From an uncultured Thermoplasmatales archaeon (GTDB taxonomy: Archaea > Thermoplasmatota > E2 > DHVEG-1): DNA of 64,000 nucleotides. Positions 45,897-62,300 of this stretch are shown piece after piece. Made by a program: the position numbers and the translations under genes. How positions within the stretch are numbered: position 1 is the stretch's first letter; each line of letters starts with the position of its first letter. The stretch spans positions 5,303 to 69,302 of the forward strand of contig CAYXPY010000006.1 in the NCBI GenBank assembly GCA_964467345.1. Reading direction: 5' to 3'. The notes beneath the pieces are model-generated. The model did no database searches. It saw only the letters and a list, made by a program, of their open reading frames with translations, and was not told where the DNA came from.

Positions 45897-45921
45897 TTGG
45901 ATGTCTCCGTTCTTCTCTTTC

Positions 45922-46275
45922 TTAGACTGTGATTGATTTGGTTAGTTTTCCAAACAAACTGCAATATGCAGTGACTGTCAGTTCGTCACCACTTATCGCA
46001 GTGACATTATAATTATAGCGGAAAAAGAATAACCGTTGTTGATTCGTATAGGATTCACTAGTATACAGCTCCCCATTTTTTTCAACGTCAACCTTATACA
46101 CATAATGGACTTTGGGGGCTAGCGAAAAATGCAGGATTAAGACCTGCAGGGTGTCAGGTTCATAGTCGAGTCTCATGTACCGTGGGTTATGGGCGGCTGC
46201 CTGCATGCTTACCATCAGTGCTCCGATGAGAAGCATGATCACAAACAACGTATACGTTCTATACTTCATATTCAC
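45922..46275 (-). CDS. Small secreted hypothetical protein
   Basis: Signal peptide followed by AHNP; KVHYV...AYCSLFG; starts 6 nt downstream of the GSDH-like stop. Confidence 0.7.
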   Translation of the reverse strand: MNMKYRTYTLFVIMLLIGALMVSMQAAAHNPRYMRLDYEPDTLQVLILHFSLAPKVHYVYKVDVEKNGELYTSESYTNQQRLFFFRYNYNVTAISGDELTVTAYCSLFGKLTKSITV

Positions 46276-46281
46276 ATTCTC

Positions 46282-47856
46282 CTATTCAACCGTTAGATGC
46301 CAAATCTCCCCGGATCGTAAGAAGGATCCAATAAAACGTGTCGTCACCACATAGATCTCCCCGTTTTCATCCTCCCCGAAACCAAAGACGAACCGTTTCA
46401 AAGGTTTCTCATTTGCCAAAGAGAATTCGAATCGTTCCCATACGCCTGGCTCGATCTCAGCGAGATAATACAGCTTCCCATCAGGTTTTGTAAACTGTGT
46501 GCTCCAGTCGCCGAACACATATAATCCTATGAGCGACGATGACTGGGTGCCTCTATAGACATACCCCCCGATGATCGAACGTCCTACGAAATGACTGTAC
46601 TCATGGATCGGAGGCTTAAGCGTCTCGATACTGATGTTCAGATATTCCGCTAACTCCGGGTCATAGGGATGTGTCCCCTCAAGGATCCGCCATCCATAGT
46701 TCCCTCCGCTTTCCACGATATCGATTTCTTCCCATTCGTCCTGGCCTACGTCTGCGACATACAGCGCTCCAGTGAGCTGATCAAATGAGAATCGATATGG
46801 GTTGCGGAAACCATATGCGTAGATTTCGTCAAGGCCCTGGGTTCCGACGAAAGGATTGTCTGGTGGAATCGCATATGGTGTGTCTCCATCAACATCAATT
46901 CGAAGGATTTTACCAAGGAGCGTACTGGTATTCTGTCCGTTCCCGATGTCTCCATGCAGATCACCAGCTCCACCACCATCGCCCACCCCGATATACAAGT
47001 ATCCATCTGGTCCGAATGCCAGCTGACCACCGTTATGGTTTGCCTCTGGTTGGTCGATACGAAGGATGATGTTCTCCGAAGACGGGTCCGCGATGTTGGG
47101 ATCCTCAGCTGAGACCGTGTACTCTGCGATGATACTTTCATGGTCTACCCCTTCTGCGGTTTTTGGTCCACTGTAGTATACGAAGAACCGACCGTTGGTC
47201 TCATACTCTGGATGAAACGCAAGACCAAGCAGCCCTCGTTCATCATAGAGTAAGTTGAGCTTGACCATCTTGCTTGTCAGATCTAAAAAAGGTGGCGAAA
47301 CCTGGATTTCCCCGTCGTCAATGACATAGATGATCCCGGGTTGGTCTGCCACAAAGAGACGGTTTGTTCCATCTCCTGCGACGGTAAGCATTGTTGGCGC
47401 CTTCATGCCCGCGGCAACCAATTCTACTGTCGCGGTTAGTGCGTTGCTATCACCAGGGATAAGCTGGGTAAATAGACCACGCAGACGTGCCCGAATGGTT
47501 CTTACATCCTCGATACCTTCTGATGCATTTGCGGTGACCGTAATAGTTGTCTTCCCAAAACCAAACACAAAGGGGACTTTGATTCCCACCACGTTTCCTG
47601 GGCGTATTAAGGAAATCGCCCCTTCTGTTTTTTTACCAAAAACTATAAGACCACCATCAAGGTCGATATTCCAGGATATATTCGTCAAATTCACTATTCC
47701 CTGGTTACGGATCACAGCCTGGATACCCAGACCTCCCGTGATAGCCTCTACTTCAATGGCTAGCGATGGTAAAGAACTCACCTCTCTTCTGTCGTCTATG
47801 TGTAAACCAGTTGCATATAGACTTGGGGCTAAGAGCAATAAACAGCTTACGATCAC
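46282..47856 (-). CDS. Secreted PQQ-dependent sugar dehydrogenase-like (GSDH) beta-propeller with an N-terminal Ig-like domain
   Basis: ERGLLGLAFHP, NHNGGQLAFGPDGYLYIGVGDGG, GKILRIDVD, AYGFRNPYRFSFD, GGNYGW. Confidence 0.88.
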   Translation of the reverse strand: MIVSCLLLLAPSLYATGLHIDDRREVSSLPSLAIEVEAITGGLGIQAVIRNQGIVNLTNISWNIDLDGGLIVFGKKTEGAISLIRPGNVVGIKVPFVFGFGKTTITVTANASEGIEDVRTIRARLRGLFTQLIPGDSNALTATVELVAAGMKAPTMLTVAGDGTNRLFVADQPGIIYVIDDGEIQVSPPFLDLTSKMVKLNLLYDERGLLGLAFHPEYETNGRFFVYYSGPKTAEGVDHESIIAEYTVSAEDPNIADPSSENIILRIDQPEANHNGGQLAFGPDGYLYIGVGDGGGAGDLHGDIGNGQNTSTLLGKILRIDVDGDTPYAIPPDNPFVGTQGLDEIYAYGFRNPYRFSFDQLTGALYVADVGQDEWEEIDIVESGGNYGWRILEGTHPYDPELAEYLNISIETLKPPIHEYSHFVGRSIIGGYVYRGTQSSSLIGLYVFGDWSTQFTKPDGKLYYLAEIEPGVWERFEFSLANEKPLKRFVFGFGEDENGEIYVVTTRFIGSFLRSGEIWHLTVE

Positions 47857-48033
47857 AATATTTTTTCTTCGAATAATATAACCTCCTTCAATTGGTCATT
47901 ACATAGATAAGAAATACCATATAAAGATTGTGGTTAGACAAATAAATAAAAAAAATGAAATTTATTTTCGATAACCTCAACATTTAAATACCAAAGAACT
48001 TTTGTAAACATGTAATCCCGGGGAGTCATCGTA

Positions 48034-48942
48034 GTGAAACTCGTTTACCTGTGGCAGATAGTAAAATTAGCACGAATGCCGATTGTTCTGGCAGTGATAC
48101 CGATTTTCCTTATCGGTGTCTTGTTCGCACTTCGTTCTGGAGTGTCCTTTTCTCTTGTCAATTTCCTCTGGGGTTTTAGCATCTTATTTATCATTGAGAT
48201 AGCAGCGTCCTTTGCAAACGATTTCTATGATTACGACGCGGATAAACACAACAGACAATTTGGTTTCTCTGGCGGGAGTGGAGTCTTACTCGAATATCCA
48301 GAACTGCTCCCATTTGCAAAATGGGCATCAGTCATGATGTTTATCCTTGCCCTCATCTTAACAGGTTTGTTTATCGTTGTCGCATCACTGCCTCTTTGGG
48401 TCATCGCTTATATCGGTGTTGCCGTGTTTTTTTGTTGGTTTTACACCGCACCGCCACTTCGTCTTGTATATAGAGGTCTTGGTGAAATACCTCATCTATT
48501 CGCAGGAATCATGTTCCCTGGATGGGGGTATCTTATCCTGACTGGGACTATCACATCTGATCTCCTCATTTTTGCAATCCCCTTTGGGTTTCTTGGTCTA
48601 ACAGTGATACTGAATTTTGAGATACCTGACAGGGAAGCCGATATCCATGGGGGGAAACGAAATCTCGTCGTGATGAAAGGTCGGTATTTTTCTTTTCTCA
48701 TAATTTTTTTATTTTATCTGGTTACTTTTCTTTATTTTTTTATTCTCGCAGTCTTTGGCTGGTTTAATGATATCATCAATCCATGGGTGATTACAATTCT
48801 TGCGTTTCTCCCTGTATCCCTCTCTTTTATCGCTATCATTAAAAAATCTATACAACAAGATATCGCAACAAAATACGCCATACGAAATGCGATCGCTGGC
48901 TTTCTTTCGTCGTTTCTAATAATGGCATCCCTTTTATTTTAA
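48034..48942 (+). CDS. UbiA-family prenyltransferase (MenA-like)
   Basis: ANDFYDYDAD, SGGSG, YTAPPLRLVYRGLGE, EIPDREADIHGGKRNL. Confidence 0.85.
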   Translation: MKLVYLWQIVKLARMPIVLAVIPIFLIGVLFALRSGVSFSLVNFLWGFSILFIIEIAASFANDFYDYDADKHNRQFGFSGGSGVLLEYPELLPFAKWASVMMFILALILTGLFIVVASLPLWVIAYIGVAVFFCWFYTAPPLRLVYRGLGEIPHLFAGIMFPGWGYLILTGTITSDLLIFAIPFGFLGLTVILNFEIPDREADIHGGKRNLVVMKGRYFSFLIIFLFYLVTFLYFFILAVFGWFNDIINPWVITILAFLPVSLSFIAIIKKSIQQDIATKYAIRNAIAGFLSSFLIMASLLF

Positions 48943-49092
48943 CTGAAAACCTTGAGATATTGAATGTGTAACACATTTTTAGGGAATCTATATAAATATC
49001 TTTTGTAAAATTTATTTAAAGAGATCTTTTATTCCTAAAATATGGGAGTTATCTCCTAGAATAGAATCATCATGATTAAAGGGGAGTAAAGA

Positions 49093-49911
49093 ATGAAAAA
49101 AAGAACTGCAATAGTCTTGGCAATAATGCTGCTGCTCTCAAGCTTTGTCGTTGTAGGGACCACACAATCTCATCAATTAAATGACGATACTATTGAAATG
49201 AAACATGAGATTCAACCATGGTCAACACTCCAATCAGACGATGACATTACGATATCCTTTTCAAAGGCCCCATTGTCCTTAGGAGTAAATATTGAAATAC
49301 AAAACAACGGAAATGAGACCTATCAAGACGTACAATGGAGTTTTCGAGCAAAACCACAGATCTCTGGAACCGGGCTTATTTACAAAGACCAGATACGATC
49401 CGGGGTGATTGACCAACTTGGTTCCAATGAGCTGGTGACAATTCCCTTACGACCTTTGAAGGGGCAAACTTCGAGTCCTTTTGGGCTTGGGTTGTTCTAT
49501 TTTAACGCCTCGGTCAGCACCTCAGATGTCTTCTTCCGCTCTTCACAGCTGTGTTGGCTGGTGTTCTTTTTCATGGTTAATCTGAAACCAACCTACATGG
49601 ATATAGCGCCTGCAGAAGCATACAGCTTATATGAAAATGGGACTTTTAACCTCATCATCGATGTGGTTGGCTTGAATATCTATAGCCTTGGTCATCTCCC
49701 TGGCGCTGTGAATTATGTCTGGGCTGATGGGACATTAAATCAGACGATCCCCACTCTTGACAAAAACCTAACCTATCTTGTCTACTGTCACACCGATCCA
49801 CCTTCCACCGCAAGTGCTCAAGCGTTGGTCAATGCAGGGTTTTCCAAAGTCTATCGATTAGAAGGAAATTATCGAGCCTGGGTTGATGCAGGCTACCCTA
49901 CAGAAACCTAA
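49093..49911 (+). CDS. Secreted protein with an Ig-like domain and a C-terminal rhodanese domain
   Basis: Signal peptide; IIDV...GHLPGAVN...LVYCHTD...LVNAGFSKVYRLEGNYRAWVDAGYP. Confidence 0.85.
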   Translation: MKKRTAIVLAIMLLLSSFVVVGTTQSHQLNDDTIEMKHEIQPWSTLQSDDDITISFSKAPLSLGVNIEIQNNGNETYQDVQWSFRAKPQISGTGLIYKDQIRSGVIDQLGSNELVTIPLRPLKGQTSSPFGLGLFYFNASVSTSDVFFRSSQLCWLVFFFMVNLKPTYMDIAPAEAYSLYENGTFNLIIDVVGLNIYSLGHLPGAVNYVWADGTLNQTIPTLDKNLTYLVYCHTDPPSTASAQALVNAGFSKVYRLEGNYRAWVDAGYPTET

Positions 49912-50017
49912 ACACACCTTCCTTATCCCCTTCTTTATGCACCGTAACAAATAAAGTCACATAATCTTCTTAAACCACTGTAGTATACGACTAACAAGGT
50001 TTGAAAGCGGGAGACAT

Positions 50018-50737
50018 ATGATTATCAACTATCTTATCTTAGACATCCTTATAATCTTATTTCCGTTCTTACTTTCATTTAAGTGGAAATTTGCTTATTA
50101 TCGGTACTACAAGGCATTGTTCCCTGCGATTGCTATCGTAGGCACTGGCTATATCATCTGGGATGCGATTGTCACGGCGCGAGGAGACTGGTGGTTCAAC
50201 TATGAGTATCTCTCGGGAATCACCATCATCGGACTACCTCTTGAAGAGATCTTATTCTTCATTGTTGTCCCCTATTCCTGTATATTCATCTATGAGAACC
50301 TTGAGTATTTCTTTCCTGATAAAAAAATAAGATTCAACAAGATCTTCTATGTTGTTTTGATCGTATTGTTCGTTATCGGTGGACTTGCCTTCTATCATCA
50401 GGACTATACGATCCTTGCTCTGATGTCGTGTGCGTTCTTTTTCCTAGTAGCACTTTGGCGTTCCCCAGACATCCTGCAATCCCGGAACTACTGGCTCTAC
50501 ATCGGGATTTCGATGATTCCCTTCATCATTTTCAATTATCTCTTGACCTCCATTCCGATCGTTCTGTATAATCCAGCGGCCATATGGGGTGGCGATGGTC
50601 TTTGGAACGGACGGTTCTTCACCATTCCTCTTGAGGATTTCTTTTACAATTACTCGATGCTGTCCTTTTATCTCCTCGTATACGTATATTTCAAAAAACG
50701 ATGGATATCCAATAAAAAAGATAATTCTCACAGGTGA
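50018..50737 (+). CDS. crtY: Lycopene beta-cyclase, fused CrtYc/CrtYd (archaeal membrane type)
   Basis: Two repeats: IWDAIV...GDWWFN...GLPLEEILFFIVVPY and FNYLL...Y...IPLEDFFY. Confidence 0.88.
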   Translation: MIINYLILDILIILFPFLLSFKWKFAYYRYYKALFPAIAIVGTGYIIWDAIVTARGDWWFNYEYLSGITIIGLPLEEILFFIVVPYSCIFIYENLEYFFPDKKIRFNKIFYVVLIVLFVIGGLAFYHQDYTILALMSCAFFFLVALWRSPDILQSRNYWLYIGISMIPFIIFNYLLTSIPIVLYNPAAIWGGDGLWNGRFFTIPLEDFFYNYSMLSFYLLVYVYFKKRWISNKKDNSHR

Positions 50738-50746
50738 TACAACTTG

Positions 50747-50790
50747 TTTATGATTCTATATGATGTAATCATAAAATATTTATGCTATTA
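50747..50790 (+). promoter_or_regulatory. Inverted repeat overlapping a BRE/TATA-like element upstream of crtI
   Basis: TTTATGATT-N11-AATCATAAA (50747-50775) running into AAAATATTTATG. Confidence 0.35.
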
Positions 50791-50813
50791 CACATTCGTT
50801 GATAAAAAAAGGG

Positions 50814-52301
50814 ATGAACGTGGCTGAAAAAAAAATCATCATCATCGGTGCTGGATTCGGTGGCATGTCTCTTGGGGCACTGCTTGCCAAGGAAGGACAT
50901 CAGGTAACCATCCTTGAAAAAAACGACCAGCCAGGGGGACGAGCGATCGTTTGGAAAGAAAAAGGATTCGTCTTCGACATGGGACCGTCCTGGTACCTCA
51001 TGCCTGATGTGTTTGATAAATTCTTTGCGGAATTTGGGAAAAAACCAGATGATTATTACAAGCTTGTCCGACTCAATCCCGCGTACCGAGTGTTTTTCAG
51101 CAAAGATGAAATCGTTGATGTGTCACCTGACCTTGAACAGAACCTGCAGCTCTTCGAACGCTACCAGAAAGGAGGACGTGAACAACTAAAAAGATATCTT
51201 GCTGCAGCTGAGTATCAGTATCAAATTGCGATGAATGAGTTCATCTACAAGGAATACCGCCATCTCTGGGATTTCTTCAGCCTCCGACTGCTGCTTAAGG
51301 GCAGCAAACTGCATATCTTCACCAGCCTGGATGAATACGCCAAACGGTACATCACCGATCCCAAGATGCGGAAAATACTGGAATACACGATGGTGTTCCT
51401 TGGTGGGACACCCTTTGATACCCCTGCCTTGTATTCCCTGATGTCCCATGTCGACTTCAACTTAGGCGTCTGGTACCCCGATGGCGGATTTGGGGCGCTT
51501 GCAAAGGGATTTGAACGACTCGCTACCGAACAAGGTGTGGTTTTTGAGTATAACGCTGAGGTGGAAAAGATAACTGTCAGTGGCAATCGTGTCACCGGTG
51601 TGAAAACTGCAAAAGGCGACATGGCTGCTGATGTTGTGATCGCCAACGCTGATTACCCGTACGTCGAAACCCATCTGTTGGAAAAACAATATCAAACCTA
51701 TCCTGAGGAGTACTGGAACAAAAAAGCTATCGCTCCCTCAGCTCTCCTGATGTATCTTGGGGTGAAAGGAAAAATCAAGGCGTTTGCACATCATAACCTA
51801 TATTTCGCGCCTCAATGGGAGGACCATTTCAACACCATCTTCCATGACCCCCGATGGCCGCAGGACCCCTCCTACTATGTCAGCTGTCCATCGAAAACCG
51901 ACCCAACCGTGGCACCCGCCCAGGACGAAAACATTTTCATCCTCATCCCGGTAGCAGCAGGTCTACCAGACACGCAAGAAACCCGGGAGAAATATTTCAC
52001 GAAAGTCATGGACCATCTCGAGGAACTCACTGGGGAAAACATCAAGGACAGACTGATAGTGAAACGACTGTTCGCACATCAAGATTTCACACAACAATAT
52101 CATGCGTACAAAGGCACTGCTCTTGGTCTGGCACATACCTTAGGGCAGACCGCAATCTTCCGCTCCTCCCATAAGAGTAAAAAAGTAAAAGGGCTGTATT
52201 ACACCGGACACTACACACACCCAGGCATTGGAGTGCCTATGGTTATCATCTCCTCCCAAATCGTGGCTTCGGAGATAAGGAACGCATATGATCATCGATA
52301 A
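50814..52301 (+). CDS. crtI: Phytoene desaturase
   Basis: IIGAGFGG, GFVFDMGPSWY, YPDGG, YHAYKGTALG, HPGIGVPMVIIS. Confidence 0.95.
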   Translation: MNVAEKKIIIIGAGFGGMSLGALLAKEGHQVTILEKNDQPGGRAIVWKEKGFVFDMGPSWYLMPDVFDKFFAEFGKKPDDYYKLVRLNPAYRVFFSKDEIVDVSPDLEQNLQLFERYQKGGREQLKRYLAAAEYQYQIAMNEFIYKEYRHLWDFFSLRLLLKGSKLHIFTSLDEYAKRYITDPKMRKILEYTMVFLGGTPFDTPALYSLMSHVDFNLGVWYPDGGFGALAKGFERLATEQGVVFEYNAEVEKITVSGNRVTGVKTAKGDMAADVVIANADYPYVETHLLEKQYQTYPEEYWNKKAIAPSALLMYLGVKGKIKAFAHHNLYFAPQWEDHFNTIFHDPRWPQDPSYYVSCPSKTDPTVAPAQDENIFILIPVAAGLPDTQETREKYFTKVMDHLEELTGENIKDRLIVKRLFAHQDFTQQYHAYKGTALGLAHTLGQTAIFRSSHKSKKVKGLYYTGHYTHPGIGVPMVIISSQIVASEIRNAYDHR

Positions 52302-53181
52302 AACGTTCTTCTCTATCTTTCGCAAAGGAAGTCGTACCTACTTCTACAGTAGCATTTTTTTTCCAATGCACATACGACGAGAAGTATTCATCCTGTATGG
52401 GTTTGTCAGGAAAACCGATAATTACGTTGATGTCATCCCACAGGACCGTGACGGATTCTATGAGTTCAAAGAGAAATATTATCAGGCAAAACAAGGTAAA
52501 GAGACAGGAGATATCGTTATTGATTCGTTCGTCCGTTTAGCAGAAAAAAAGAAATTTCAGGATGAATGGATCGAGGCGTTCCTCCATTCCATGGAGATGG
52601 ATTTAACAAAGAAACGCTATGAGACCATCGATGAGGTGCTAGAGTATATCTACGGTTCTGCGGAAGTCATTGGTCTGATGATGGCAAAAATCATCGGACT
52701 GCCAAAAGAATCCTTCGAGCATGCCAAATACCTCGGACGAGCGATGCAATACATTAACTTCATCAGGGATATCGCCGAGGACCTGGATCTTGGACGGGTC
52801 TATTTCCCTCAAACTGATTTACGGAAACACGGACTGGCGAACCTCACCTATGACCATGTCAAAGACCATCCGGATCGATTCACGAATTTTCTTCAGACCC
52901 AGCTTGATCGGTACTGCCACTGGCAGGAGCATGCAGAGGAAGGATACCACTTCATCCCGAAACGATACCTGATATCCATCAAAACCGCATCGGAGATGTA
53001 TCATTGGACCGCTGAACAAATCTCAAACCATCCCTTTATCGTCTATGACATGAAAGTAAAACCTATGATATCAAAAATCCTTCTTACGGTGGTTTCCAAT
53101 CTCATCGATACCATGGGAACAAAATTCGGGACCTCCTTTTGTGTTGAAGCAACCCACGAAAAACATGATTCTTCAGAGTAG
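52288..53181 (+). CDS. crtB: Phytoene synthase
   Basis: KGSRTYFYSS, LYGFVRKTDNYVD, FLHSMEMD, YIYGSAEVIGLM, AMQYINFIRDIAED, GRVYFP. Confidence 0.95.
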   Translation: MIIDKTFFSIFRKGSRTYFYSSIFFPMHIRREVFILYGFVRKTDNYVDVIPQDRDGFYEFKEKYYQAKQGKETGDIVIDSFVRLAEKKKFQDEWIEAFLHSMEMDLTKKRYETIDEVLEYIYGSAEVIGLMMAKIIGLPKESFEHAKYLGRAMQYINFIRDIAEDLDLGRVYFPQTDLRKHGLANLTYDHVKDHPDRFTNFLQTQLDRYCHWQEHAEEGYHFIPKRYLISIKTASEMYHWTAEQISNHPFIVYDMKVKPMISKILLTVVSNLIDTMGTKFGTSFCVEATHEKHDSSE

Positions 53182-53186
53182 TTTCT

Positions 53187-54167
53187 ATGAATGGATTTGT
53201 CAAACCTCGCATCGTAATCAGTAAATGTATCGAATTCGAATTTTGTCGATATAATGGCCAGATAATCCGTAGTGACATCGTCAGTACGATGAAACCACAT
53301 GTTGAGTTCCTCCCGATATGCCCTGAGGTAGAAATTGGACTAGGTATACCCCGAGACCCTATCCGTATCATTGAAAAACAATCGAAAAAATATCTTGTTC
53401 AACCAACTACTGGCCGTGACGTCTCTGAAGATATGAAGAGGTTTACGGAGCGATTTCTTATTAGCCAAAAAGATATCGATGGTTTTTTGTTAAAATCCCA
53501 ATCCCCCTCCTGTGGGACCCGTGATGTGAAAATCTATCCTGCAATGACACCGTCTGCAGCAATCCGTCGAGAAGCAGGTTTTTTTGGTGACCACGTACTT
53601 ACAGATTTTCCTTTTTTGGCAATCGAAGATGAAATGCGTCTGCACAATCCAATCATACGAGAGCATTATTTTATGAAAATCTTTACGTTCGCTCGATTCC
53701 GCAGGATACAACAAGTTGGATTATTACAACCGCTACTTCGATTTCATACTGAAAATAAATTTTTACTAATGGCATACAGTCAAAAGGAGCTACGGAGTCT
53801 TGGCAACATCCTTGCCAACCAAGAAAAACAACCCTTACCTCGTGTCTTTTCAGAATACGAACAACATCTTCATACTGCATTTTCCAAAGCACCGCGGTAT
53901 ACCTCTCAAATCAACGTCCTTAATCATGTGTTTGGGTATGTCTCACAGGACCTCAAAGAAAATGAAAAAAAGTTCTATGCAAGCCTTTTACAGAAATTCC
54001 GTGATGGTCAGATTCCTCTGAGTGTCCTGATAAACCTTGTGAGATCCTGGGTGATACGATTTGATCAACCGTATCTCCTCCCGCAGACCTTTTTCCAACC
54101 CTATCCTGATGAGTTGTTCGATACTGAATCGATAAAAGCAAGCAACGTGAGAGATTTCTGGAAATGA
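53187..54167 (+). CDS. DUF523-DUF1722 protein (TudS/RudS-type 4-thiouridine desulfidase family, YbgA)
   Basis: ISKC...CRYNG, PICPEVEIGLGIPR, KSQSPSCG, AIEDEMRL, FHTENKFLLMAYS, YLLPQTFFQPYP. Confidence 0.9.
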   Translation: MNGFVKPRIVISKCIEFEFCRYNGQIIRSDIVSTMKPHVEFLPICPEVEIGLGIPRDPIRIIEKQSKKYLVQPTTGRDVSEDMKRFTERFLISQKDIDGFLLKSQSPSCGTRDVKIYPAMTPSAAIRREAGFFGDHVLTDFPFLAIEDEMRLHNPIIREHYFMKIFTFARFRRIQQVGLLQPLLRFHTENKFLLMAYSQKELRSLGNILANQEKQPLPRVFSEYEQHLHTAFSKAPRYTSQINVLNHVFGYVSQDLKENEKKFYASLLQKFRDGQIPLSVLINLVRSWVIRFDQPYLLPQTFFQPYPDELFDTESIKASNVRDFWK

Positions 54168-55066
54168 AGATAGGATACCCCTGCATTAACCGCTCCCTTT
54201 CCTGCAAGGGAGACCGTACGTTCCGTTTACGCTCGTATTCAGAAGAAAGACTGCAGCAGACCATTCAAAATAACCTTGAGTGCTTGTTCCATATATTACG
54301 ATTCAATCTCGACCACGGGCTGCTCTTTTTCAGAATCTCCTCAGACCTCATTCCCTTCGCATCTCATCCTGTCTGTACGTTCCCCTGGCAGAGGGTGTTT
54401 CAAAAACGTTTCGAGGAAATCGGTCAGTTCATTATAAAAAACGACATGCGCATCTCGATGCATCCAGATCAATTCATCGTACTTAATACACCTAGGGAGG
54501 ACGTCTTTCAACGCAGTGTCGCAGAGATAGCCTATCATGCCAACGTCCTTGACCTCATGGGCCTTGATACATCAGTAAAAATACAGCTTCATGTTGGTGG
54601 CGTCTATGGGGAGAAGCAAAAAAGCATGGATCGGTTTATCAGTCGGTATCGCTCATTAGATGCTACATTGAAGCATAGACTTGTTATCGAAAACGATGAA
54701 AAAAGCTACAGCATCAAGGATTGTCTCCTGATACATGAAAAAACCAAGATTCCGGTTCTTTTTGATTATTTTCATCATACCTTGCTTAATGATCATGAAT
54801 CCTTAAGCGACGTGTTAGAATCCTGTAAAAAAACCTGGAAACCAAAAGACGGGATCCCTATGGTCGATTATAGTTCACAGAAGCCTCAAATGAAAAAAGG
54901 ATCACACGCAGAACATCTAAACAACCATGATTTTTCCAAGTTTGTTCATCAATCAAAACCATATGATTTCGATCTGATGTTGGAGATTAAAGATAAGGAG
55001 CATAGTGCAATTAAGGCACTCAAGATTCTACAATCTGATTACCGACTTGTCTCTCCAACAAAATAA
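54164..55066 (+). CDS. uvsE: UV DNA damage endonuclease
   Basis: MKIGYPCIN, FFRISSDLIPFASHP, RISMHPDQF, HVGGVYG, IENDEK, FDYFHH, MLEIKDKE. Confidence 0.95.
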   Translation: MKIGYPCINRSLSCKGDRTFRLRSYSEERLQQTIQNNLECLFHILRFNLDHGLLFFRISSDLIPFASHPVCTFPWQRVFQKRFEEIGQFIIKNDMRISMHPDQFIVLNTPREDVFQRSVAEIAYHANVLDLMGLDTSVKIQLHVGGVYGEKQKSMDRFISRYRSLDATLKHRLVIENDEKSYSIKDCLLIHEKTKIPVLFDYFHHTLLNDHESLSDVLESCKKTWKPKDGIPMVDYSSQKPQMKKGSHAEHLNNHDFSKFVHQSKPYDFDLMLEIKDKEHSAIKALKILQSDYRLVSPTK

Positions 55067-55075
55067 GAGGTTCTT

Positions 55076-55531
55076 ATGAATGAAAATAATCTAAAGAAAC
55101 AGATATTGCAATTATTTGAACATCAGCGGTTCGCTGTGATTGCCACAGAGAGAAACGGTCAACCCTACACCCATCTTGTCGCTTTTACCTTCACCCCTGA
55201 TTTACGCACACTCCTCTTTGCCACCAGACGGGACACACAAAAATACCTCAATATCAAAGAAAATCCATATGTCTCTGTTTTAATCGATAATCGTGAGAAC
55301 ACTCCTTCTGATCTGTCTGAAGCGATAACGGTCAATGCCCAAGGGCTGGCAACGGAAACACCCGATCTGAGCAAAGCGTATCATAGATTATTGGTAGAAA
55401 AACACCCTGGTCTATCATCATTTTTCGATGATCCTGCTTGTGCTCTCATTGAAGTCCATGTCAGGACCTATCAGGTTGTTCAGAAATTCGAACACATAGA
55501 TATCTTAAAAATACCAGATGAGAAAGCATAA
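55076..55531 (+). CDS. Pyridoxamine 5'-phosphate oxidase-like (split-barrel flavin-binding) protein
   Basis: FAVIATERNGQPYTHLVAF, FATRRDTQKYLNIKENPYVSVLIDNR. Confidence 0.88.
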   Translation: MNENNLKKQILQLFEHQRFAVIATERNGQPYTHLVAFTFTPDLRTLLFATRRDTQKYLNIKENPYVSVLIDNRENTPSDLSEAITVNAQGLATETPDLSKAYHRLLVEKHPGLSSFFDDPACALIEVHVRTYQVVQKFEHIDILKIPDEKA

Positions 55532-55542
55532 TTCACTGCGGT

Positions 55543-56193
55543 TCAGATACTATCAGGGAGATGCAGCTCATAGCCTCGACGAATAAGAGGGGTGTTTATT
55601 AACGCCCTGATGATGTCTAAAGGAGGGAACTGTTCCTTATAACCTAACACCGCGACATAATCCCCACCTTTTTGATACGGATCCCAATAATATACAGAGT
55701 ACGTTCCCGGAGTATTGATCGTCTCATCAAACCGAGGTCCTTGATAGTATGATTTTCCACCGAACGGTTCATAGAACTCTTCTCGGGGAGTCCCTGGTGG
55801 TACGTCTTGTTTTACGATCACACCATATCCAGGCGGAACATCAAATGGTAATGTCTGATTCGGCGGGGGCAGTCCAGGCCCAACTAACGCGAACCATGGG
55901 GTAAAATTCGCGTAAAAACCATCACAAACCGGTACGATGGCCTCAATGAAGACCTGGAGCGGTTGATCCTTAATCTGGAAACTATACACATCGATATCGG
56001 TCGAAGGGTTGATCCAGTCTGTCTCCAACCATGAATACACCGCTATCGATTGAGTGATTGACCTTCGCACCTGAAATGGTTTTTGTATGGTGGAGTCACG
56101 ATGTTCTAAATACGGCACATGAGCTGAGAGAGATGGTAAAAGACAAAGACCGGCACATAAGCCAGCAAAGACTATTAGTACGGTTCTTTTCAT
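55543..56193 (-). CDS. Secreted hypothetical protein, divergent from the heliorhodopsin gene
   Basis: Start reassigned to ATG 56193 (MKRTVLIVFAGLCAGLCLLPSLSAHVP); FYEPFGGKSY, GTYSVYYW, GDYVAVLGYKEQF. Confidence 0.75.
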   Translation of the reverse strand: MKRTVLIVFAGLCAGLCLLPSLSAHVPYLEHRDSTIQKPFQVRRSITQSIAVYSWLETDWINPSTDIDVYSFQIKDQPLQVFIEAIVPVCDGFYANFTPWFALVGPGLPPPNQTLPFDVPPGYGVIVKQDVPPGTPREEFYEPFGGKSYYQGPRFDETINTPGTYSVYYWDPYQKGGDYVAVLGYKEQFPPLDIIRALINTPLIRRGYELHLPDSI

Positions 56194-56323
56194 ACTATTA
56201 TCTAAGGAGATTTCGCTATATAAACATTTTTTATTACGCATTTCTGGGTTATAACACAATTCCATAAAACAAATAAAGCATAACTGATTTCTCAATAGGG
56301 AGTGTTTGAGGGAGAAGATACCC

Positions 56324-57241
56324 ATGCATGAAATAAAAATTATGTGTCCAAAATGCCGCCACCAGTTCATCACCAAAGGTGAACCAAATGAAAAAATCTA
56401 TGTGACATGCCCGTCCTGCAAGACCTATGGGACGTTCACTGTTCCAGCAGGAACCTGTGATCCGAACAAAGTAGAGTGTTTCACCGATACCGGTGATGCC
56501 CGTTTCAAGAAACTACGAATCTTCAATGCAGTCATGGGTGTTATCCACATGATCCAAGGGTTCCTCATGCTTCTTTTAAGTAATGCATTTACACTTCCCC
56601 TGACATACACCCATCCTGAATACAATGCTATTACGAACACGATTTCTCCAGTATCTGAAACCTTTTTCAACGTCCAAATTGGACCACTCGTTGCCTTATT
56701 TCTCTTCATGTCTGCTACCGCTCATATTCTCATCTCAACAGTATTATACAAATGGTATGTAAAAAAACTTCAAAACCATATCAACCCTGCTCGATGGTAT
56801 GAATATTCTTTCAGCGCATCGTTGATGATCTTCCTTATCGCCATGCTTGTGACGATCTATGACTTTGGGACCTTGCTAGCCTTATTTACACTTACCGCAG
56901 TCATGAACCTCATGGGTCTCGTGATGGAGCTGCATAATCAAACAACGACAAAAACAAACTGGACTTCTTTTAATATCGGATGTATCGCTGGTTTTATCCC
57001 TTGGGTCGTCATCTTCATTCCCCTTGTTACTGCTGCTTCTGTACCAGATTTTGTCATTGCTATATTTATAACAATTGCAGTGTTCTTCAATCTGTTCGCC
57101 ATCAACATGTTCTTACAGTATAAGAAAATCGGGAAATGGAAGGAGTACCTCTACGGGGAACGCATGTACATAGTCCTAAGCCTTGTTGCGAAATCCGCCC
57201 TTGCCTGGCAGGTGTTTGCTGGGACGCTTCGACCGATGTAA
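56324..57241 (+). CDS. heR: Heliorhodopsin with an N-terminal zinc-ribbon extension
   Basis: IHMIQG, AHILIS, NPARWYEYSFSAS (counterion Glu), GLVMELHNQ, SLVAKS (retinal Lys); N-terminal CPKC-x17-CPSC. Confidence 0.95.
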   Translation: MHEIKIMCPKCRHQFITKGEPNEKIYVTCPSCKTYGTFTVPAGTCDPNKVECFTDTGDARFKKLRIFNAVMGVIHMIQGFLMLLLSNAFTLPLTYTHPEYNAITNTISPVSETFFNVQIGPLVALFLFMSATAHILISTVLYKWYVKKLQNHINPARWYEYSFSASLMIFLIAMLVTIYDFGTLLALFTLTAVMNLMGLVMELHNQTTTKTNWTSFNIGCIAGFIPWVVIFIPLVTAASVPDFVIAIFITIAVFFNLFAINMFLQYKKIGKWKEYLYGERMYIVLSLVAKSALAWQVFAGTLRPM

Positions 57242-57298
57242 AAAACCAACCCTATTTTCCTTTTTCTTTTTTTTTTTTTCCAAAAAATCATTTCAGCA

Positions 57299-58222
57299 TT
57301 ATATGTTACAAACCTCGGAGCCGTTTTCCGAACAAATCTGAATAGTGCATTCAATGATATTGAATTTCTTCAGGAGATAATCATTGATCCGTGAGATGAC
57401 CTCTTCTTGTTTCCCCTGGATCTTGCTTTCATTGATTTGTACATGAGCGGAGAACACAAGCATATCCGGGGTAATCGACCAAAGGTGAGCATTGTGGAGT
57501 TCCCGGAGTTCTGAAAAATTCTTTTTAAGATCATCAGAAATCATATCGACATTAAGACCTTTCGGGGAGGTCTCCAGAAGTATCCGTGTCGAGTCTTTCA
57601 GTACCCCCCATGCCCAGAGAACAATGATAAGAGAAATACCAATGCTGACAAAAGGATCGATAAACGTCCAATTGGTGAACATAATGATGATTGCCGCGAT
57701 CACAATCCCAACAGATGAGACCGCATCAGCAAACATATGATAAAAAATACTACGGATGTTCAGATCCCCCTTATGCGATCCCCGCAGGATCAGAATGCTT
57801 ATAATGTTGACCGTAAGACCGATGAATGCGATAAGAAGCATCTCCAAACCAAGGATTTCCACAGGGTTAAGCAATCGGAGGATCGCTTCATAGACAATGA
57901 GTCCAACAATCACAAGAAGGAACAATCCGTTCACAAACGCAGCCAACACCTCAGCGCGGTATAACCCAAACGTCCGGTGATGGCAGGGGGGTCTCCGAGC
58001 AATAACGATTGCGACAAGCCCAATGAGTAACGCGAACACATGCGTGAACATATGGCCCGCGTCGCTGAGTAACGCCATACTGTTGGTAAGATACCCCCCG
58101 ATGATCTCCAGGATCATCACGATCGAGGTAATACCAAGTGAAAAAACCAGTTTTTTTTGCTCGACATGTCGATATTCAAAGAGATGTTCAGAAAATGCTT
58201 TTTGGACTGGGTTCTTGGTCAT
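57299..58222 (-). CDS. Cation diffusion facilitator (CzcD/ZitB-like Zn/Co/Cd exporter)
   Basis: ALLSDAGHMFTH, TFGLYRAEVLAAFVNG, HMFADAVSS, HLW, AHV. Confidence 0.92.
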   Translation of the reverse strand: MTKNPVQKAFSEHLFEYRHVEQKKLVFSLGITSIVMILEIIGGYLTNSMALLSDAGHMFTHVFALLIGLVAIVIARRPPCHHRTFGLYRAEVLAAFVNGLFLLVIVGLIVYEAILRLLNPVEILGLEMLLIAFIGLTVNIISILILRGSHKGDLNIRSIFYHMFADAVSSVGIVIAAIIIMFTNWTFIDPFVSIGISLIIVLWAWGVLKDSTRILLETSPKGLNVDMISDDLKKNFSELRELHNAHLWSITPDMLVFSAHVQINESKIQGKQEEVISRINDYLLKKFNIIECTIQICSENGSEVCNI

Positions 58223-58259
58223 AGCACCGGTCTTCTTTCGTATGATTTTTTTTCAATAC

Positions 58260-60122
58260 TTAAAACAGATCGACTACTTTGAATTTTCCTTCCATCTGCT
58301 GAATTGCTTTGTTTGGCAGGGTGAAACGCATGACATTCCCCGTATTATTTTCATTTTCGACCCATATTTTTCCACCATGGGAAAGAACAATGCCCCGTGA
58401 GATAGAGAGCCCTAGCCCTATATCGCCACTTGTTCGGTCTGTACCCGCATCAGCTTGATAGATGACGTCGAACATTTTCTTCTGTTTCTGCTTTGGTATC
58501 CCACGTCCTTCATCCTGTATCTCAAAGAGCACCTCACCAGGTTCTTTATTTACTCTGACTGTTATCGTGGAATTCTCTGGGGACGATTGTATCGCGTTCT
58601 GCAGGAGGTTTATCAACACCTGTTTCACGCGTTCCTTGTCAATCGTAAGCTCAGGGAGCTCCTTGGGTATTTCTGTGCTTATCCGTATTTGTTTTACATC
58701 GGCTGCAGGCTCTGAGGTCCCAATTGCATCCTCTACTAACCGTTTGACATTGGTTTTCTGTGGGGAGAACTTCATTGTCCCTGACTCAAGATGAACGATG
58801 TCAAGGATATCCTGCAGAAGTTGTGTTGACCGGTTCGTATTTGCCACAACCACACCTAACCCTTTTTTCTGTTCATCATTCACCGGGCCAAGGCTTTCCA
58901 GAAGCAGGATCTCGGCATATCCTTTGATGGTAGACATCGATGATCGCAGCTCATGGGTGGTGATATCAAGGAAGTTTGATTTTGTCCGATCGAGTTTCTT
59001 TAACTTTGTGTTTTGTTGCTCAAGCCTCTTCTGCGACTTTTGCAATCTCTCCCGTTCGATATGGAGATCCCCTATGGTTCGTTTATATTCGTTCAATCTC
59101 TTTTTTAACAACGTGTTCTGTTTTGTCAGTTCAACAGTTCGCTCCTGGACCTTTTTTTCTAACCAATAATGGGCTTTCCGCAGCTCCCCTTCTATTTTTT
59201 TCCTATCTGTTACGTCATCCATGGTCGAATAGATAGAAAGCACAGCACCTGACTCGTTAAAACACAGGAAATCATTGATCACAAAAACACGAGGTTCACC
59301 GTTTTTCGCTAGATATGTCCGTTCGTGTCCACCGGTGTATGATTTTCTACTTGTTATTTTTTCCCTAAAAGAGTTTTTTGCGGTTTCTTGCTCGTCACAA
59401 TGGATGAAATTAAAAATCGGTTTCCCTATGATCTCCTGTCGTTCATATCCCAGCAATTGACACCATTTTTCATTCACATCGGTAATCGTCCCTTCTGCTG
59501 ATAGTGTATGATAGGGGACTGGGGCCTTCTCATAGAGCTGTTTGAACTTCTCCTCTGAGACCCGTAACGCCCGTTCCATCTGTTTGTTTTGCGAATTATC
59601 TTTAATGATCCCGATAGAACCGATCACATTCCCGATACGGTCCTTCAATACACTCAGGGAAATATCGACATCGACAAGGGCGTTGTCTTTCCGTATCATT
59701 TGTGTTTCCAGATGATGTTGAATCCCTTTCTGCCTGATGTTCTCCGATCTTATCTTTTGCCATTCTTCTTTTGGGTAGAGGTATTTGACCGGTTTCATCA
59801 TCAGCTCGTTTTTACTCATCCCAAGAAGCTTTTCTGTATAGGTGTTCCAATGCACGATCCGCTCGTTCTCATCAGTAAGCATGATAGCGACTGCGGAATT
59901 ATCAAAAATAATTCGATATTTTTCAATTGGATCTCCCAAATCAATCGTTGGTATGTCTTCCCCTTTATGATGCCGAAGGATTGAAAACATTGATACAAAA
60001 GAATCGTTTTCACATTCTTCGTCTACAGGTTTTTTTGGTTCTTCCATGCTTCGACTATGAAGCCGTCCCAATCGCTCCTCTGCTCGTAATGTTTTTATTA
60101 TCTCAGGATCATCGTTTTTCAT
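58260..60122 (-). CDS. Cytoplasmic PAS-PAS sensor histidine kinase
   Basis: Two PAS/PAC repeats; THELRSSM (H-box), NLLQNAI, DEGRGIP, GLGLSIS; no TM segment. Confidence 0.9.
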   Translation of the reverse strand: MKNDDPEIIKTLRAEERLGRLHSRSMEEPKKPVDEECENDSFVSMFSILRHHKGEDIPTIDLGDPIEKYRIIFDNSAVAIMLTDENERIVHWNTYTEKLLGMSKNELMMKPVKYLYPKEEWQKIRSENIRQKGIQHHLETQMIRKDNALVDVDISLSVLKDRIGNVIGSIGIIKDNSQNKQMERALRVSEEKFKQLYEKAPVPYHTLSAEGTITDVNEKWCQLLGYERQEIIGKPIFNFIHCDEQETAKNSFREKITSRKSYTGGHERTYLAKNGEPRVFVINDFLCFNESGAVLSIYSTMDDVTDRKKIEGELRKAHYWLEKKVQERTVELTKQNTLLKKRLNEYKRTIGDLHIERERLQKSQKRLEQQNTKLKKLDRTKSNFLDITTHELRSSMSTIKGYAEILLLESLGPVNDEQKKGLGVVVANTNRSTQLLQDILDIVHLESGTMKFSPQKTNVKRLVEDAIGTSEPAADVKQIRISTEIPKELPELTIDKERVKQVLINLLQNAIQSSPENSTITVRVNKEPGEVLFEIQDEGRGIPKQKQKKMFDVIYQADAGTDRTSGDIGLGLSISRGIVLSHGGKIWVENENNTGNVMRFTLPNKAIQQMEGKFKVVDLF

Positions 60123-60365
60123 ATCATCACTCCTTGATTCGATGGCCTGTTCTCATTACACTGTAAACCTACGTTAAACTGGTCAGTATCATCTAATGAA
60201 GACCTATGTGTCATTGCAGTTCCCATCCGTATTATAACAACAAAAGTAACCATTTTTTGGTATAAAACATTAATGGCTCTCAACATAAAATTTTTTGATT
60301 GGAAGAAACCATCTCAGAAAAACTTATATAGCATATTGTTTGTTAATGATACAAGGGGAATATAT

Positions 60366-62300
60366 ATGAAAAAACTACTCGCAATTGTCGTATTAGGGGT
60401 ATTGCTTGCAACTGGATTAGCAACAGGCAATTCCTTACACGCCGAAAATACTACTATGAAAACAAGCGAAACCATCGCATGTTCAGAGATAAACGTGGTC
60501 GAATCAAACGAATATATCTCACTGGCATTTGATGGATCAACCTCGTTTCTGATGCGACCCGACGAGCCGGTGATCCCAAGAATAACAAGGGTCTACGTCC
60601 TTCCGTTCCAAGCTTTTGACATCCAGGTCTCTGTTGATTTCTCATCACCACATGCATACACACTTGACCGGCTCATTCGCCCGGCGCCACACCCCATCAT
60701 CGATGGCAAAGAAACAACAGAGATGATAAGTACTCCCTCAGAAACCATCTATCAGAGCGCTGAGATTTACCCACGAGAATCATTTTCCTATTCCACAAGC
60801 ACTGGTCTTTCAGGGGCAGAGCATGTGGTCTTCCTCTCGGTGACCGTTTATCCTCTTCGGTACTCGCCTCTTGAGAACACGGTTTTTGTTTCTGACCAAT
60901 GTGTCATTACCATCTCCTACGAACCTCCTCGCAACCCACAGGTGTTTTCTGATGAGTACGACTTGCTTGTGATTGCTCCTGCTGACTATGAGGCTGCGCT
61001 GCAACCTCTTGTTGCTCATAAGAACTCTTTTGGGATGAGCACCCTGTTTGTCAGCCTTGAGTCAATCTACAGTGAGATTACTGCAGGCAGGGATGATGCA
61101 GAGAACGTAAAACTCTATATCAAAAAGGCGATAGAGGATCTTGGGGTGACGTATGTGTTGCTCGTCGGCGGCATGACACTTCAAAAGGAGGAATGGATTG
61201 TCCCTGTTCGGTATACAAACAATCATGTCGGAGTAGGCTATGAGCTTGGGGTTATCAGTGATTTGTATTTTGCTGATATTTACAAGGAAAATGGGACTGC
61301 GTTTGAAGACTGGGACAGTAACGGGAACGGGATTTTTGCTGAGTACACATCAACAAGTAAAGATATCATTGACGGATCGCCTGATATTTACATCGGTCGG
61401 CTTGCTTGCAGTTCTGTAAAAGAGGTGTCCCTCATGGTTGATAAAATTTTAGACTACGAGACGACCCCGGCGGATGATTCCTGGTTTAAACGGATGCTTC
61501 TCATTGGTGGGGATACCTATCCTGAATCCGGTGGTGTGGGTGCCTATGAGGCTGAGATAGATACGAACGTCTCTGCAGGTTACATGACGGGGTTTGAGTT
61601 CGAACGACTCTTTGCTTCCTCAGGGACGCTTACTGGCCAAAAAAGTGTTGAACAAGCGATAAACGCTGGTGTTGGATTTATCCACTGCGCGGGACATGCG
61701 AACCCTTCGACGCTAGTGACGCATCCTCCGCTGAATAAAACCGAGAAGATAACGATCATGGGGATGTATAATATCCCACCGATGAATGCGTTCTACGCTT
61801 TGATTTACCAGAAACGAGGTATCGCTGGTTTTCTTGAGGAACTTAAAGAGCGATGGATGCCAAGGTTACGGAACGGGGAAAAACAACCGGTTGTCGTGGT
61901 CGGTGGATGTCACAATAGCCAGTTCAACGTCACGCTCATGAACATTCGCACCTACGGTTTTACCCATGCGTATGGCTATGGTATTCACGTCCCGAAATGC
62001 TGGAGCTGGTGGTTGACAAGCAAAAAGGACGGTGGCGCGATTGCGACTATGGGTAATTCAGGACTGGGCATGGGATTACCCGGGTTTGATTACCCCAATG
62101 GTCTTGACGGCTGGCTTCTCCCCCGGTTCTTCTACAACTACAACCAACTAGGGCTACATCACGTCGGGGAGGCACATAGTGCTGCCATCGCTGATTATGT
62201 CAACGAATTTGATATCAATGCAGATGATGCAGATCGTCAGATGGTAGAACAATGGGTTCTTCTAGGAGACCCAAGCCTGATGATCGGAGGATATTCGTAA
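60366..62300 (+). CDS. Second secreted C25 (gingipain-like) peptidase, no PKD tail
   Basis: Start reassigned to ATG 60366 (MKKLLAIVVLG); YVLLVGG, YIGRL, HCAGHAN (His), VGGCHNSQF (Cys), WVLLGDPSL. Confidence 0.9.
   Translation: MKKLLAIVVLGVLLATGLATGNSLHAENTTMKTSETIACSEINVVESNEYISLAFDGSTSFLMRPDEPVIPRITRVYVLPFQAFDIQVSVDFSSPHAYTLDRLIRPAPHPIIDGKETTEMISTPSETIYQSAEIYPRESFSYSTSTGLSGAEHVVFLSVTVYPLRYSPLENTVFVSDQCVITISYEPPRNPQVFSDEYDLLVIAPADYEAALQPLVAHKNSFGMSTLFVSLESIYSEITAGRDDAENVKLYIKKAIEDLGVTYVLLVGGMTLQKEEWIVPVRYTNNHVGVGYELGVISDLYFADIYKENGTAFEDWDSNGNGIFAEYTSTSKDIIDGSPDIYIGRLACSSVKEVSLMVDKILDYETTPADDSWFKRMLLIGGDTYPESGGVGAYEAEIDTNVSAGYMTGFEFERLFASSGTLTGQKSVEQAINAGVGFIHCAGHANPSTLVTHPPLNKTEKITIMGMYNIPPMNAFYALIYQKRGIAGFLEELKERWMPRLRNGEKQPVVVVGGCHNSQFNVTLMNIRTYGFTHAYGYGIHVPKCWSWWLTSKKDGGAIATMGNSGLGMGLPGFDYPNGLDGWLLPRFFYNYNQLGLHHVGEAHSAAIADYVNEFDINADDADRQMVEQWVLLGDPSLMIGGYS

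Follow-up and report, generated by a model that had tools for sequence, protein, structure and literature searches.

In a stretch of 64,000 nt from an uncultured sediment archaeon of the Thermoplasmatales (contig CAYXPY010000006.1; 'the window' below), a heliorhodopsin (HeR) with a zinc ribbon (Znf-HeR) is encoded next to an operon of genes for carotenoid synthesis and for putative control of ultraviolet (UV) damage. Comparing this region with other HeR loci, we saw that the linkage of HeR with photoprotection genes is non-random and far above chance, but not universal; some loci have the photoprotection block with no HeR unit beside it, and others the reverse. We characterize the region as one version of a 'sunlight island' of surface-dwelling Thermoprofundales (MBG-D), in which HeR would be a facultative, co-selected member, likely acting on partner proteins, and no master switch; this reading as a whole we hold with about even confidence. 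HeR function is largely open, and a clear case of a HeR governing a multi-layer UV/light defence would be valuable. Both the gene arrangement and the idea of control by HeR had been published in 2021–2022; an earlier annotation of the same DNA, made from its letters alone (the sequence-only reading), took HeR for the light sensor of the defence genes and added to the published idea only an explicit tRNA layer. The present analysis adds (i) limits on this hypothesis, namely facultative linkage, a separate HeR unit and the weakness of the kinase and of the ribbon as output candidates; (ii) natural HeR-less and HeR-swapped variants of the cluster, which are ready-made controls; (iii) an overlooked conserved neighbour, the gene of a secreted protein called SEC here, together with a portable zinc ribbon.

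Gene models came from a list of open reading frames (ORFs) combined with Pfam and NCBIfam profile searches (Table 1). All genes named in the sequence-only reading were confirmed, and its labels for the carotenoid pathway, the RudS-type desulfidase and UvsE proved sound by profiles and motifs. The genes crtI, crtB, RudS, UvsE and PNPOx form a tightly coupled operon: from crtI on, as had been noticed earlier, neighbouring genes are separated by at most 9 nt or overlap (crtI/crtB, overlap of 14 nt; crtB/RudS, gap of 5 nt; RudS/UvsE, overlap of 4 nt; UvsE/PNPOx, gap of 9 nt), and crtY precedes crtI by 76 nt. Both domains of RudS were found above cutoff, PF04463 at residues 9–149 and PF08349 at residues 191–307. 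Judged by inspection and not by structure, its Cys14, Cys45 and Cys109 fit the Cys12/44/110 pattern of RudS_ST (PMC11417400, Table 1), and CPE and SPSCG motifs, expected for the catalytic Glu and Ser, are present. The PNPOx protein had its best PDB sequence match in 3ec6, 'General stress protein 26' (5e-6). The island core would be a single transcript in which crtI-crtB are translationally coupled to RudS, UvsE and the PNPOx protein similar to general stress protein 26 (GSP26), with crtY, crtZ and UbiA upstream. Its carotenoids would limit photo-oxidative damage to the membrane, RudS near-UV damage to tRNA and UvsE UV damage to DNA; PNPOx would be a stress-type protein in this damage-mitigation operon.

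How often HeR accompanies such genes was determined from one genome per GTDB species; the scan yielded 80 HeR loci, 56 of them archaeal-type (almost all from Thermoplasmatota) and 24 bacterial. Window proteins were mapped to the neighbourhoods by tblastn and all neighbouring ORFs were clustered; Lnnn below are labels of loci in the comparison set. A HeR gene was considered linked if a crt, RudS, UvsE or photolyase (PHR) gene was present within 10 kb. Of the archaeal loci, 21 extend for at least 8 kb to either side of HeR, and 8 of these (∼38%) have linked genes; so do 9 of the 24 Znf-HeR loci whose upstream DNA reaches at least 8 kb. The chance expectation is ∼1% per single-copy gene in a ∼2-Mb genome. 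The synteny expected in the sequence-only reading does recur in many species-level genomes and in rearranged orders; however, it is limited to the above ∼38% of evaluable loci, and variants without HeR exist. CrtB, among the most frequent neighbours, RudS and UbiA are each present in 13 of the 56 archaeal HeR loci, with UbiA directly beside HeR in L017, L028, L032 and L049.

The gene order of the window was found again in L002, L043, L052 and L054, and partly in L003; it is rearranged, with linkage preserved, in L016, L017, L028 and L032 (HeR 72–75% identical). At least four architectures connect crt, RudS, UvsE or PHR genes to HeR: (i) the window type; (ii) that of L017/L032; (iii) that of L028; (iv) a clade of ribbon-less HeRs, L045–L050 (61–63% identical). 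In the ribbon-less clade, crtZ/I/B/Y are situated downstream of HeR; the upstream series consists of GTP cyclohydrolase FolE2/MptA, Tpt1 RNA 2′-phosphotransferase, a RudS-like gene, class II photolyase and UbiA, followed by HeR, with photolyase and HeR on the same strand. The operon side was sampled by a metagenome scan with RudS (24 loci), and further loci were added from seven SEC homologues that were looked up. The five-gene order crtI-crtB-RudS-UvsE-PNPOx is the same in L002, L043, L054, L084–L091, L094–L098 and L106, and most close RudS orthologues with enough downstream DNA precede SEC and HeR.

The sequence-only reading had HeR following the co-oriented run. HeR is indeed downstream of this run, but the overlooked minus-strand SEC gene intervenes between PNPOx and HeR; therefore, HeR is outside the co-oriented run and has its own transcription unit. 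Judged by gene orientation, HeR appears monocistronic, divergent from SEC and convergent with the CDF transporter gene. The 11-mer AACAAATAAAG occurs exactly twice in the 64 kb, at 49946–49956, 72 nt upstream of crtY, and at 56268–56278, 56 nt upstream of the HeR ATG. It was considered as an operator common to crtY and HeR and was rejected: in orthologue alignments each copy is a local TATA-like box, the first one being crtY's own. Genomes with UbiA ahead of crtY carry TTTATAAAAGC in place of AACAAATAAAG, and the two boxes are not kept as a pair. No shared operator was found between the crtY and HeR promoters, and no transcription-factor gene was found in the cluster. A scan for sigma-70 promoters and terminators gave counts near the shuffle expectation, the sigma-70 model being uninformative for an archaeon.

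Both parts of the island also occur singly. Locus L092 carries crtY-crtI-crtB-RudS-PNPOx-photolyase and SEC, followed by peroxiredoxin and other genes, with no HeR; in L081, SEC is beside photolyase-PNPOx-RudS-UbiA-CrtZ-CrtB and in L082 beside photolyase-PNPOx-UvsE-RudS, with no HeR in 13–16 kb. Conversely, L035 (HeR 88% identical; 7182–10927) has the order disulfide reductase-SOUL-SEC-HeR-CDF-kinase without the crt-to-PNPOx block. Compared with L035, the window carries an extra 11.5 kb (44042–55531, from the LEA-like gene to PNPOx) between SOUL and SEC, and among close relatives this photoprotection block acts like an indel. In L090 it is the HeR slot that differs: the gene divergent from SEC codes for the same zinc ribbon fused to an ABC-transporter ATPase and is followed by an ABC-2 permease (L090:13143–15094). 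At the DNA level, L090 and the window are homologous through PNPOx-SEC; beyond this, homology returns just for the 130 nt coding for the ribbon (56324–56453, 69% identity) and then ends.

This ribbon is made by CPKC and CPSC separated by 17 residues (CxxC-17-CxxC, residues 8–32 of the window HeR), it has a weak match to Zn_ribbon_4, and the seven-helix body follows it. The window protein thus shows the N-terminal CxxC-17x-CxxC fusion to HeR that defines Znf-HeR, and a ribbon is present in 36 of the 56 archaeal HeR loci. A cytoplasmic-type zinc ribbon at the N-terminus fits an N-in topology. Lys290, in the motif VAKSALAW, we take to be the retinal Schiff-base lysine of transmembrane (TM) helix 7, and Glu160, in YEYS, the TM3 counterion, as in HeR structures. 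Both motifs are identical to the aligned segments of TaHeR (PDB 6is6; 1.8e-123), which matches the window protein over the seven-helix body only.

A search with the ribbon alone against 1.84 billion representative proteins gave 40 matches, a number that shows other architectures and is too small to define a family. Among them were HeR fragments, ABC ATPases and several unrelated proteins with 4–6 TM helices (P0252, P0254, P0255, P0258, P0261). Since the ribbon is present on ABC ATPases and unrelated TM proteins, it is no dedicated HeR-to-DNA, transcriptional output; it is a general portable N-terminal module of membrane-associated proteins in these archaea. It could serve as a docking device, in agreement with a HeR reported to modulate an ABC transporter (PMC11109279). 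The 43-residue ribbon would then be a portable cytoplasmic docking tag that couples HeR to other ribbon-tagged membrane machines, with SEC as a constant extracellular companion; a light signal would pass through ribbon–ribbon association or a shared ribbon partner, and not through transcriptional control of the operon. We see this proposal as a long shot.

One could speculate, as was done in the literature (PMC8612252, PMC9585477), that HeR is the master light sensor switching the carotenoid/RudS/UvsE operon in a role similar to that of CarH/LitR; the sequence-only reading also proposed this, with the output passing via the zinc ribbon or the neighbouring PAS kinase. We consider it quite unlikely. 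Apart from HeR, the window has no known photoreceptor: Pfam scans of its ∼60 ORFs revealed no CarH/LitR-type, LOV, BLUF, cryptochrome/photolyase or type-1 rhodopsin domain and no MerR-family B12-binding photoregulator, and no such regulator was seen in the clusters of conserved neighbours; a class II photolyase used as tblastn query matched nothing in the window, and the LOV motif NCRFL is absent from all six frames, the kinase included. The earlier statement that HeR is the sole photoreceptor thus holds within the window, although sister loci have a class II CPD photolyase between PNPOx and SEC. The slow, sensor-like photocycles of HeRs and their enrichment near two-component genes (PMC8612252), as well as the non-random linkage itself, would suit a master sensor. 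However, such a sensor is placed outside the operon that it should control; the operon with SEC does without an adjacent HeR (L092, L081, L082) or has an ABC ATPase in its place (L090), HeR-SEC is kept without the operon in L035, and the promoters have no common operator, AACAAATAAAG being a TATA-like box not conserved as a pair. Both proposed outputs are weakened as well. The ribbon is shared with ABC ATPases and unrelated membrane proteins, and the kinase has an orthologue in just 3 of the 24 Znf-HeR loci with enough flanking DNA (in the whole comparison set, only in L012, L034, L035, L052, L094, L096 and L098). The kinase gene is separated by 37 nt from CDF, which follows it on the same strand, and both converge on HeR; the two genes would more naturally be read as one co-transcribed unit, and no response regulator was found near the kinase. 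Finally, all experimentally shown functions of HeRs are protein–protein modulation, not transcription (PMC9769723, PMC11109279).

Protein–protein modulation is what we suppose for HeR as a facultative member of the island. A class II CPD photolyase gene closes the operon, immediately ahead of SEC and the HeR slot, in L043, L052, L085, L091, L092, L094–L098 and L106 (L092 being without HeR); a representative photolyase scored 638 bits with TIGR00591 (cutoff 550). This slot matters because exactly a class II CPD photolyase was shown to be bound and stimulated by a HeR, that of Trichococcus (TfHeR; PMC9769723). Adjacency of HeR and photolyase is seen also in Chloroflexota loci L067, L076 and L080. 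The second precedent is OcHeR, which modulates the ABC transporter OmrDE (PMC11109279). In L013 (7944–10948) and L108 (2884–5871) a ribbon-ABC ATPase, an ABC-2 permease and a ribbon-HeR are encoded one after another on a single strand, in what appears to be an operon divergent from SEC-SOUL. From the analogy with experimentally studied HeRs and from the partners in sister loci, HeR would most likely be a slow-cycling photosensor that acts by protein–protein contact on a partner placed beside it in each lineage, the partner in sister genomes being a class II photolyase or an ABC exporter. Plausibly, the adjoining carotenoid pathway would supply the precursor of the HeR chromophore or an antenna pigment.

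Several observations weigh against this picture of HeR as an island member acting on partners. None of the photoprotection genes is near HeR in about 60% of the archaeal loci, so HeR has other contexts too. In the window, neither a photolyase nor glutamine synthetase nor an ABC transporter adjoins HeR, i.e. no precedented partner is beside it. Neither blh/brp (PF15461) nor another gene for carotenoid cleavage turned up in the window or in the representative multi-TM neighbours of HeR tested from related loci, and ThiI, which synthesizes s4U8, the source of the RudS substrate, was not found within the 64 kb. Also, synteny alone is compatible with regulation of the operon by HeR in trans.

The operon itself is a mosaic. 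The photolyase-bearing variants (L043, L094–L098, L106) have RudS 61–63%, UvsE 62–63% and PNPOx 50–52% identical to those of the window, whereas their CrtB (83–85%), SEC (79–81%) and HeR (82–91%) are much closer, indicating that the repair cassette RudS-UvsE-PNPOx may have been replaced within the island. Such a mosaic segment (50–63% identity against flanks of 80–90%) and the indel-like behaviour of the 11.5-kb block could be expected if the linkage were purely historical, that is, if the ancestor of the sunlit-habitat clade had acquired the genes together by horizontal transfer and inertia had kept them close, with no functional interaction between HeR and the operon. We find this very unlikely: inertia alone is insufficient where the linkage was re-formed in several orders and orientations, including the ribbon-less HeR clade, and where HeR-photolyase adjacency appears independently in Chloroflexota.

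Clusters of rhodopsin and retinal synthesis genes are known as crtEBIY-blh beside proteorhodopsin and as crtY/brp/blh of haloarchaea. Similarly, crtB, crtI and crtY are all present beside a retinal protein in the window; unlike in those clusters, no cleavage gene blh/brp was found and the crt genes are joined to a repair operon. One may ask, then, whether crt genes adjoin HeR mainly to make beta-carotene, the retinal precursor, and a zeaxanthin antenna, with the repair genes as co-transcribed passengers. The route to beta-carotene and zeaxanthin is represented by crtB, crtI, crtY and the CrtZ-like gene, and the frequency of CrtB among HeR neighbours (a count that RudS and UbiA equal) agrees with such a role, as does a preprint that argues, from structure and docking, for a carotenoid-binding fenestration in most HeRs, for docking of zeaxanthin and for xanthophyll binding by HeRs (10.1101/2025.11.27.691015); antenna binding by HeR is a docking prediction. 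Chromophore supply as encoded at the window locus is incomplete, and the cleavage enzyme could be elsewhere in the genome; in PMC8612252 and PMC9585477 there is no mention of blh, brp or retinal biosynthesis. Translational coupling of crt genes to RudS and UvsE, which are unrelated to chromophores, crt-containing clusters without HeR (L092, L081) and the many HeR loci with RudS or PHR but no crt (L046, L049) also count against chromophore supply as the main reason for the linkage, and we regard it as unlikely.

The closest published description is that of Bulzu et al. (2021, mSphere, PMC8612252), who named zinc-ribbon HeRs of Thermoplasmatales 'Znf-HeR' for the N-terminal CxxC-17x-CxxC. Most of them had genes of lycopene cyclase, phytoene desaturase, SQS_PSY, photolyase and UvdE at their flanks, one had a histidine kinase gene there, and HeRs were proposed as light switches for mitigation of (photo-)oxidative stress. 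The HeR subfamily and the flanking genes are the same as here; that paper had six sequences and is silent on SEC, on the RudS assignment, on clusters of this kind that lack HeR and on the occurrence of the ribbon in ABC ATPases or further membrane proteins. In Thermoprofundales (MBG-D), HeR was reported only for Subgroup E from sunlit habitats, 'always accompanied' by carotenoid genes (CrtZ/CrtB/CrtD-type), PhrB and UvsE, and control of carotenoid and DNA-repair genes by HeR was offered as a speculation (Mol Biol Evol 2022, PMC9585477). The lineage and the cluster are the same; 'always' compares with ∼38% of evaluable loci within 10 kb in our set.

RudS genes are known from light-responsive operons that also hold genes for photolyase and carotenoids (PMC11417400, 2024). 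The bacterial LitR/CarH light-inducible operons described there and in its references share with the window the mix of carotenoid synthesis, RudS and UV DNA repair; unlike in them, no MerR/B12 regulator was found here, the host is an archaeon, UvsE stands in for photolyase or is added to it, and the neighbouring gene codes for a rhodopsin. The TfHeR–photolyase pair (PMC9769723) is resembled by sister loci L043, L052 and L094–L098, where the class II CPD photolyase is one gene away from HeR, and the OcHeR–OmrDE pair (PMC11109279) by the operon of ABC ATPase, permease and HeR in L013 and L108. The window differs from both pairs in having neither partner and no enzyme co-transcribed with HeR; also, the studied bacterial HeRs have no zinc ribbon.

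SEC is the commonest and most conserved neighbour of zinc-ribbon HeR; of the 24 Znf-HeR loci whose upstream DNA spans at least 8 kb, 14 have it adjacent. A signal peptide is followed by AHVPYLE, invariant in the alignment of homologues, and the C-terminus ends with ELH; the mature protein may therefore start with His. No Pfam, NCBIfam or PDB sequence match was found for SEC. It has 554 homologues, all named ones being hypothetical proteins of Thermoplasmatota; in the comparison set they are present in L001–L004, L006, L008–L010, L013, L014, L016, L018, L023, L028, L030, L035, L043, L052 and L054. The AlphaFold2 (AF2) model (pLDDT 79.6) is a beta-sandwich with weak jelly-roll/PPC/CBM-like matches (query-normalised TM-score ≤0.36), among which are the copper proteins MopE and CorA. 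From the invariant His after the signal peptide one could guess at a histidine-brace metal site. In L109, a membrane-anchored paralogue of SEC is encoded between SEC and HeR.

In HeR-less loci a conserved 7-TM protein of ∼270 aa is encoded convergent to SEC (L081:8633–9448, L082:4217–5071, L110:1720–2538, L111:6630–7442); it was also seen near HeR three times, in one archaeal locus and two of Chloroflexota (L007, L070, L076). It was considered as a divergent rhodopsin and rejected (hhalign probability versus HeR of 0.1%; no Pfam match at E=10). Its tryptophan-rich motifs may resemble those of TspO. The neighbours of the 7-TM gene in L111 include Pyr_excise (T4 endonuclease V-like), MsrA and MsrB.

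Upstream of crtY the cluster extends to genes of a SOUL protein, a CrtZ-like hydroxylase, a GSDH-type dehydrogenase with a small secreted protein, UbiA and a rhodanese (Table 1). SOUL is within 10 kb of HeR in 10 of the 56 archaeal loci, often in the order SOUL-SEC-HeR, and GSP26-like PNPOx, in 12 of the 56, likewise recurs beside HeR and SEC; this recurrence hints at handling of tetrapyrrole photosensitisers as an extra layer of the island. The LEA_2-like gene co-occurs in L028, L030, L032, L054, L087, L089, L090 and L094. Orthologues of the CrtZ-like protein, which had no NCBIfam match, adjoin crtB in L016, L017, L028, L032, L045 and L081; its histidine motifs, by inspection, we take to resemble those of CrtZ. 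The pair of GSDH and the small secreted protein is found near HeR or photoprotection genes in L002, L017, L028, L032, L043, L054 and L082, and the rhodanese gene is upstream of crtY in L052, L054, L086 and L094. The UbiA protein is weakly MenA-like, the NCBIfam MenA models scoring far under their cutoffs, and no relative was found in a PDB sequence search; a lycopene-elongase-type enzyme is one candidate identity. By our own reasoning, its gene is probably the 'BchG' of the 2022 Thermoprofundales paper (PMC9585477).

Table 1. Genes and the divergent intergenic region of the island, with positions in the window
Feature	Position	Strand	Matches and remarks
SOUL haem-binding protein	43453-44001	-	PF04832 3.8e-43
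Weakly LEA_2-like protein	44042-45271	-	PF03168 2.4e-06; opens the 11.5-kb block lacking in L035
CrtZ-like beta-carotene hydroxylase, 159 aa, FA_hydroxylase family	45417-45896	+	PF04116 41.5 bits
Small secreted protein after GSDH, 117 aa	45922-46275	-	His directly after hydrophobic N-terminal leader (AAH/NPRY)
Secreted GSDH-type (PQQ-like) dehydrogenase	46282-47856	-	PF07995 3.6e-41
UbiA-family prenyltransferase	48034-48942	+	PF01040 77 bits
Protein with C-terminal rhodanese domain and hydrophobic N-terminus	49093-49911	+	PF00581 48 bits; predicted secreted from sequence
Lycopene beta-cyclase (crtY), fused CrtYc/CrtYd type	50018-50737	+	PF18916 x2 (Lycopene_cyc), TIGR03462 x2
Phytoene desaturase CrtI	50799-52301, probable ATG start 50814	+	NF058655 'CrtID' 706 bits (cutoff 640); TIGR02734 509 bits
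Phytoene synthase CrtB	52288-53181	+	PF00494 (SQS_PSY) 178 bits
RudS-type TudS-DUF1722 fusion, putative tRNA 4-thiouridine desulfidase	53187-54167	+	PF04463 then PF08349
UvsE/UVDE UV-damage endonuclease	54164-55066	+	PF03851 228.5 bits; TIGR00629 equivalog 202.7 bits (cutoff 124.45)
PNPOx-fold protein, general stress protein 26-like, final operon gene	55076-55531	+	PF01243 52.6 bits
SEC, secreted beta-sandwich protein (predicted fold), 216 aa	55543-56193	-	Between PNPOx and HeR
Divergent SEC/HeR intergenic region, 130 bp	56194-56323	.	Two conserved TATA-like blocks in orthologue alignment
Zinc-ribbon heliorhodopsin (Znf-HeR)	56324-57241 (alternative start 56306)	+	PF18761 317.7 bits (cutoff 26.7); NF038020 equivalog 341 bits (cutoff 100)
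CDF cation-efflux transporter, closest to ZitB	57299-58222	-	PF01545, PF16916; TIGR01297 275 bits
Soluble PAS-PAS histidine kinase	58260-60122	-	PAS x2, HisKA, HATPase_c

The CDF transporter scored 255 bits with the ZitB model, under the cutoff of that model. Its gene adjoins HeR also in L025, L031 and L048, in other orientations (CDF>HeR>, HeR>CDF<). TaHeR reportedly binds zinc, beside which, and beside the zinc ribbon, the adjacency of a CDF gene is curious.

Downstream of HeR and on the same strand, close relatives of the window (L003, L004, L005, L008, L035, L043, L052) have genes of a C39-like peptidase (DUF3335) and of a B12-binding radical-SAM protein, weakly BchE/HpnJ-like; the window has neither. 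In our judgement, the gene of the radical-SAM protein is probably the 'BchE' of PMC9585477. In the Znf-HeR clade L024, L026, L027 and L029, two convergent TrkA (K+ transport regulator) genes always come after HeR and an LPG_synthase_TM-methyltransferase gene comes before it, with no photoprotection genes nearby.

Elsewhere in the window we observed a co-oriented minus-strand group at 18725–23124, coding for DUF2064, a CCG/4Fe-4S protein, a VTT-domain membrane protein, a radical-SAM protein with DUF3641 and a family-2 glycosyltransferase. Two plus-strand regions, 8799–13111 and 60273–62300, code for two gingipain-like C25 peptidases (one with PKD) and a Porphyromonas-type peptidyl-arginine deiminase with PKD, a notable secreted proteolysis set for an archaeon.

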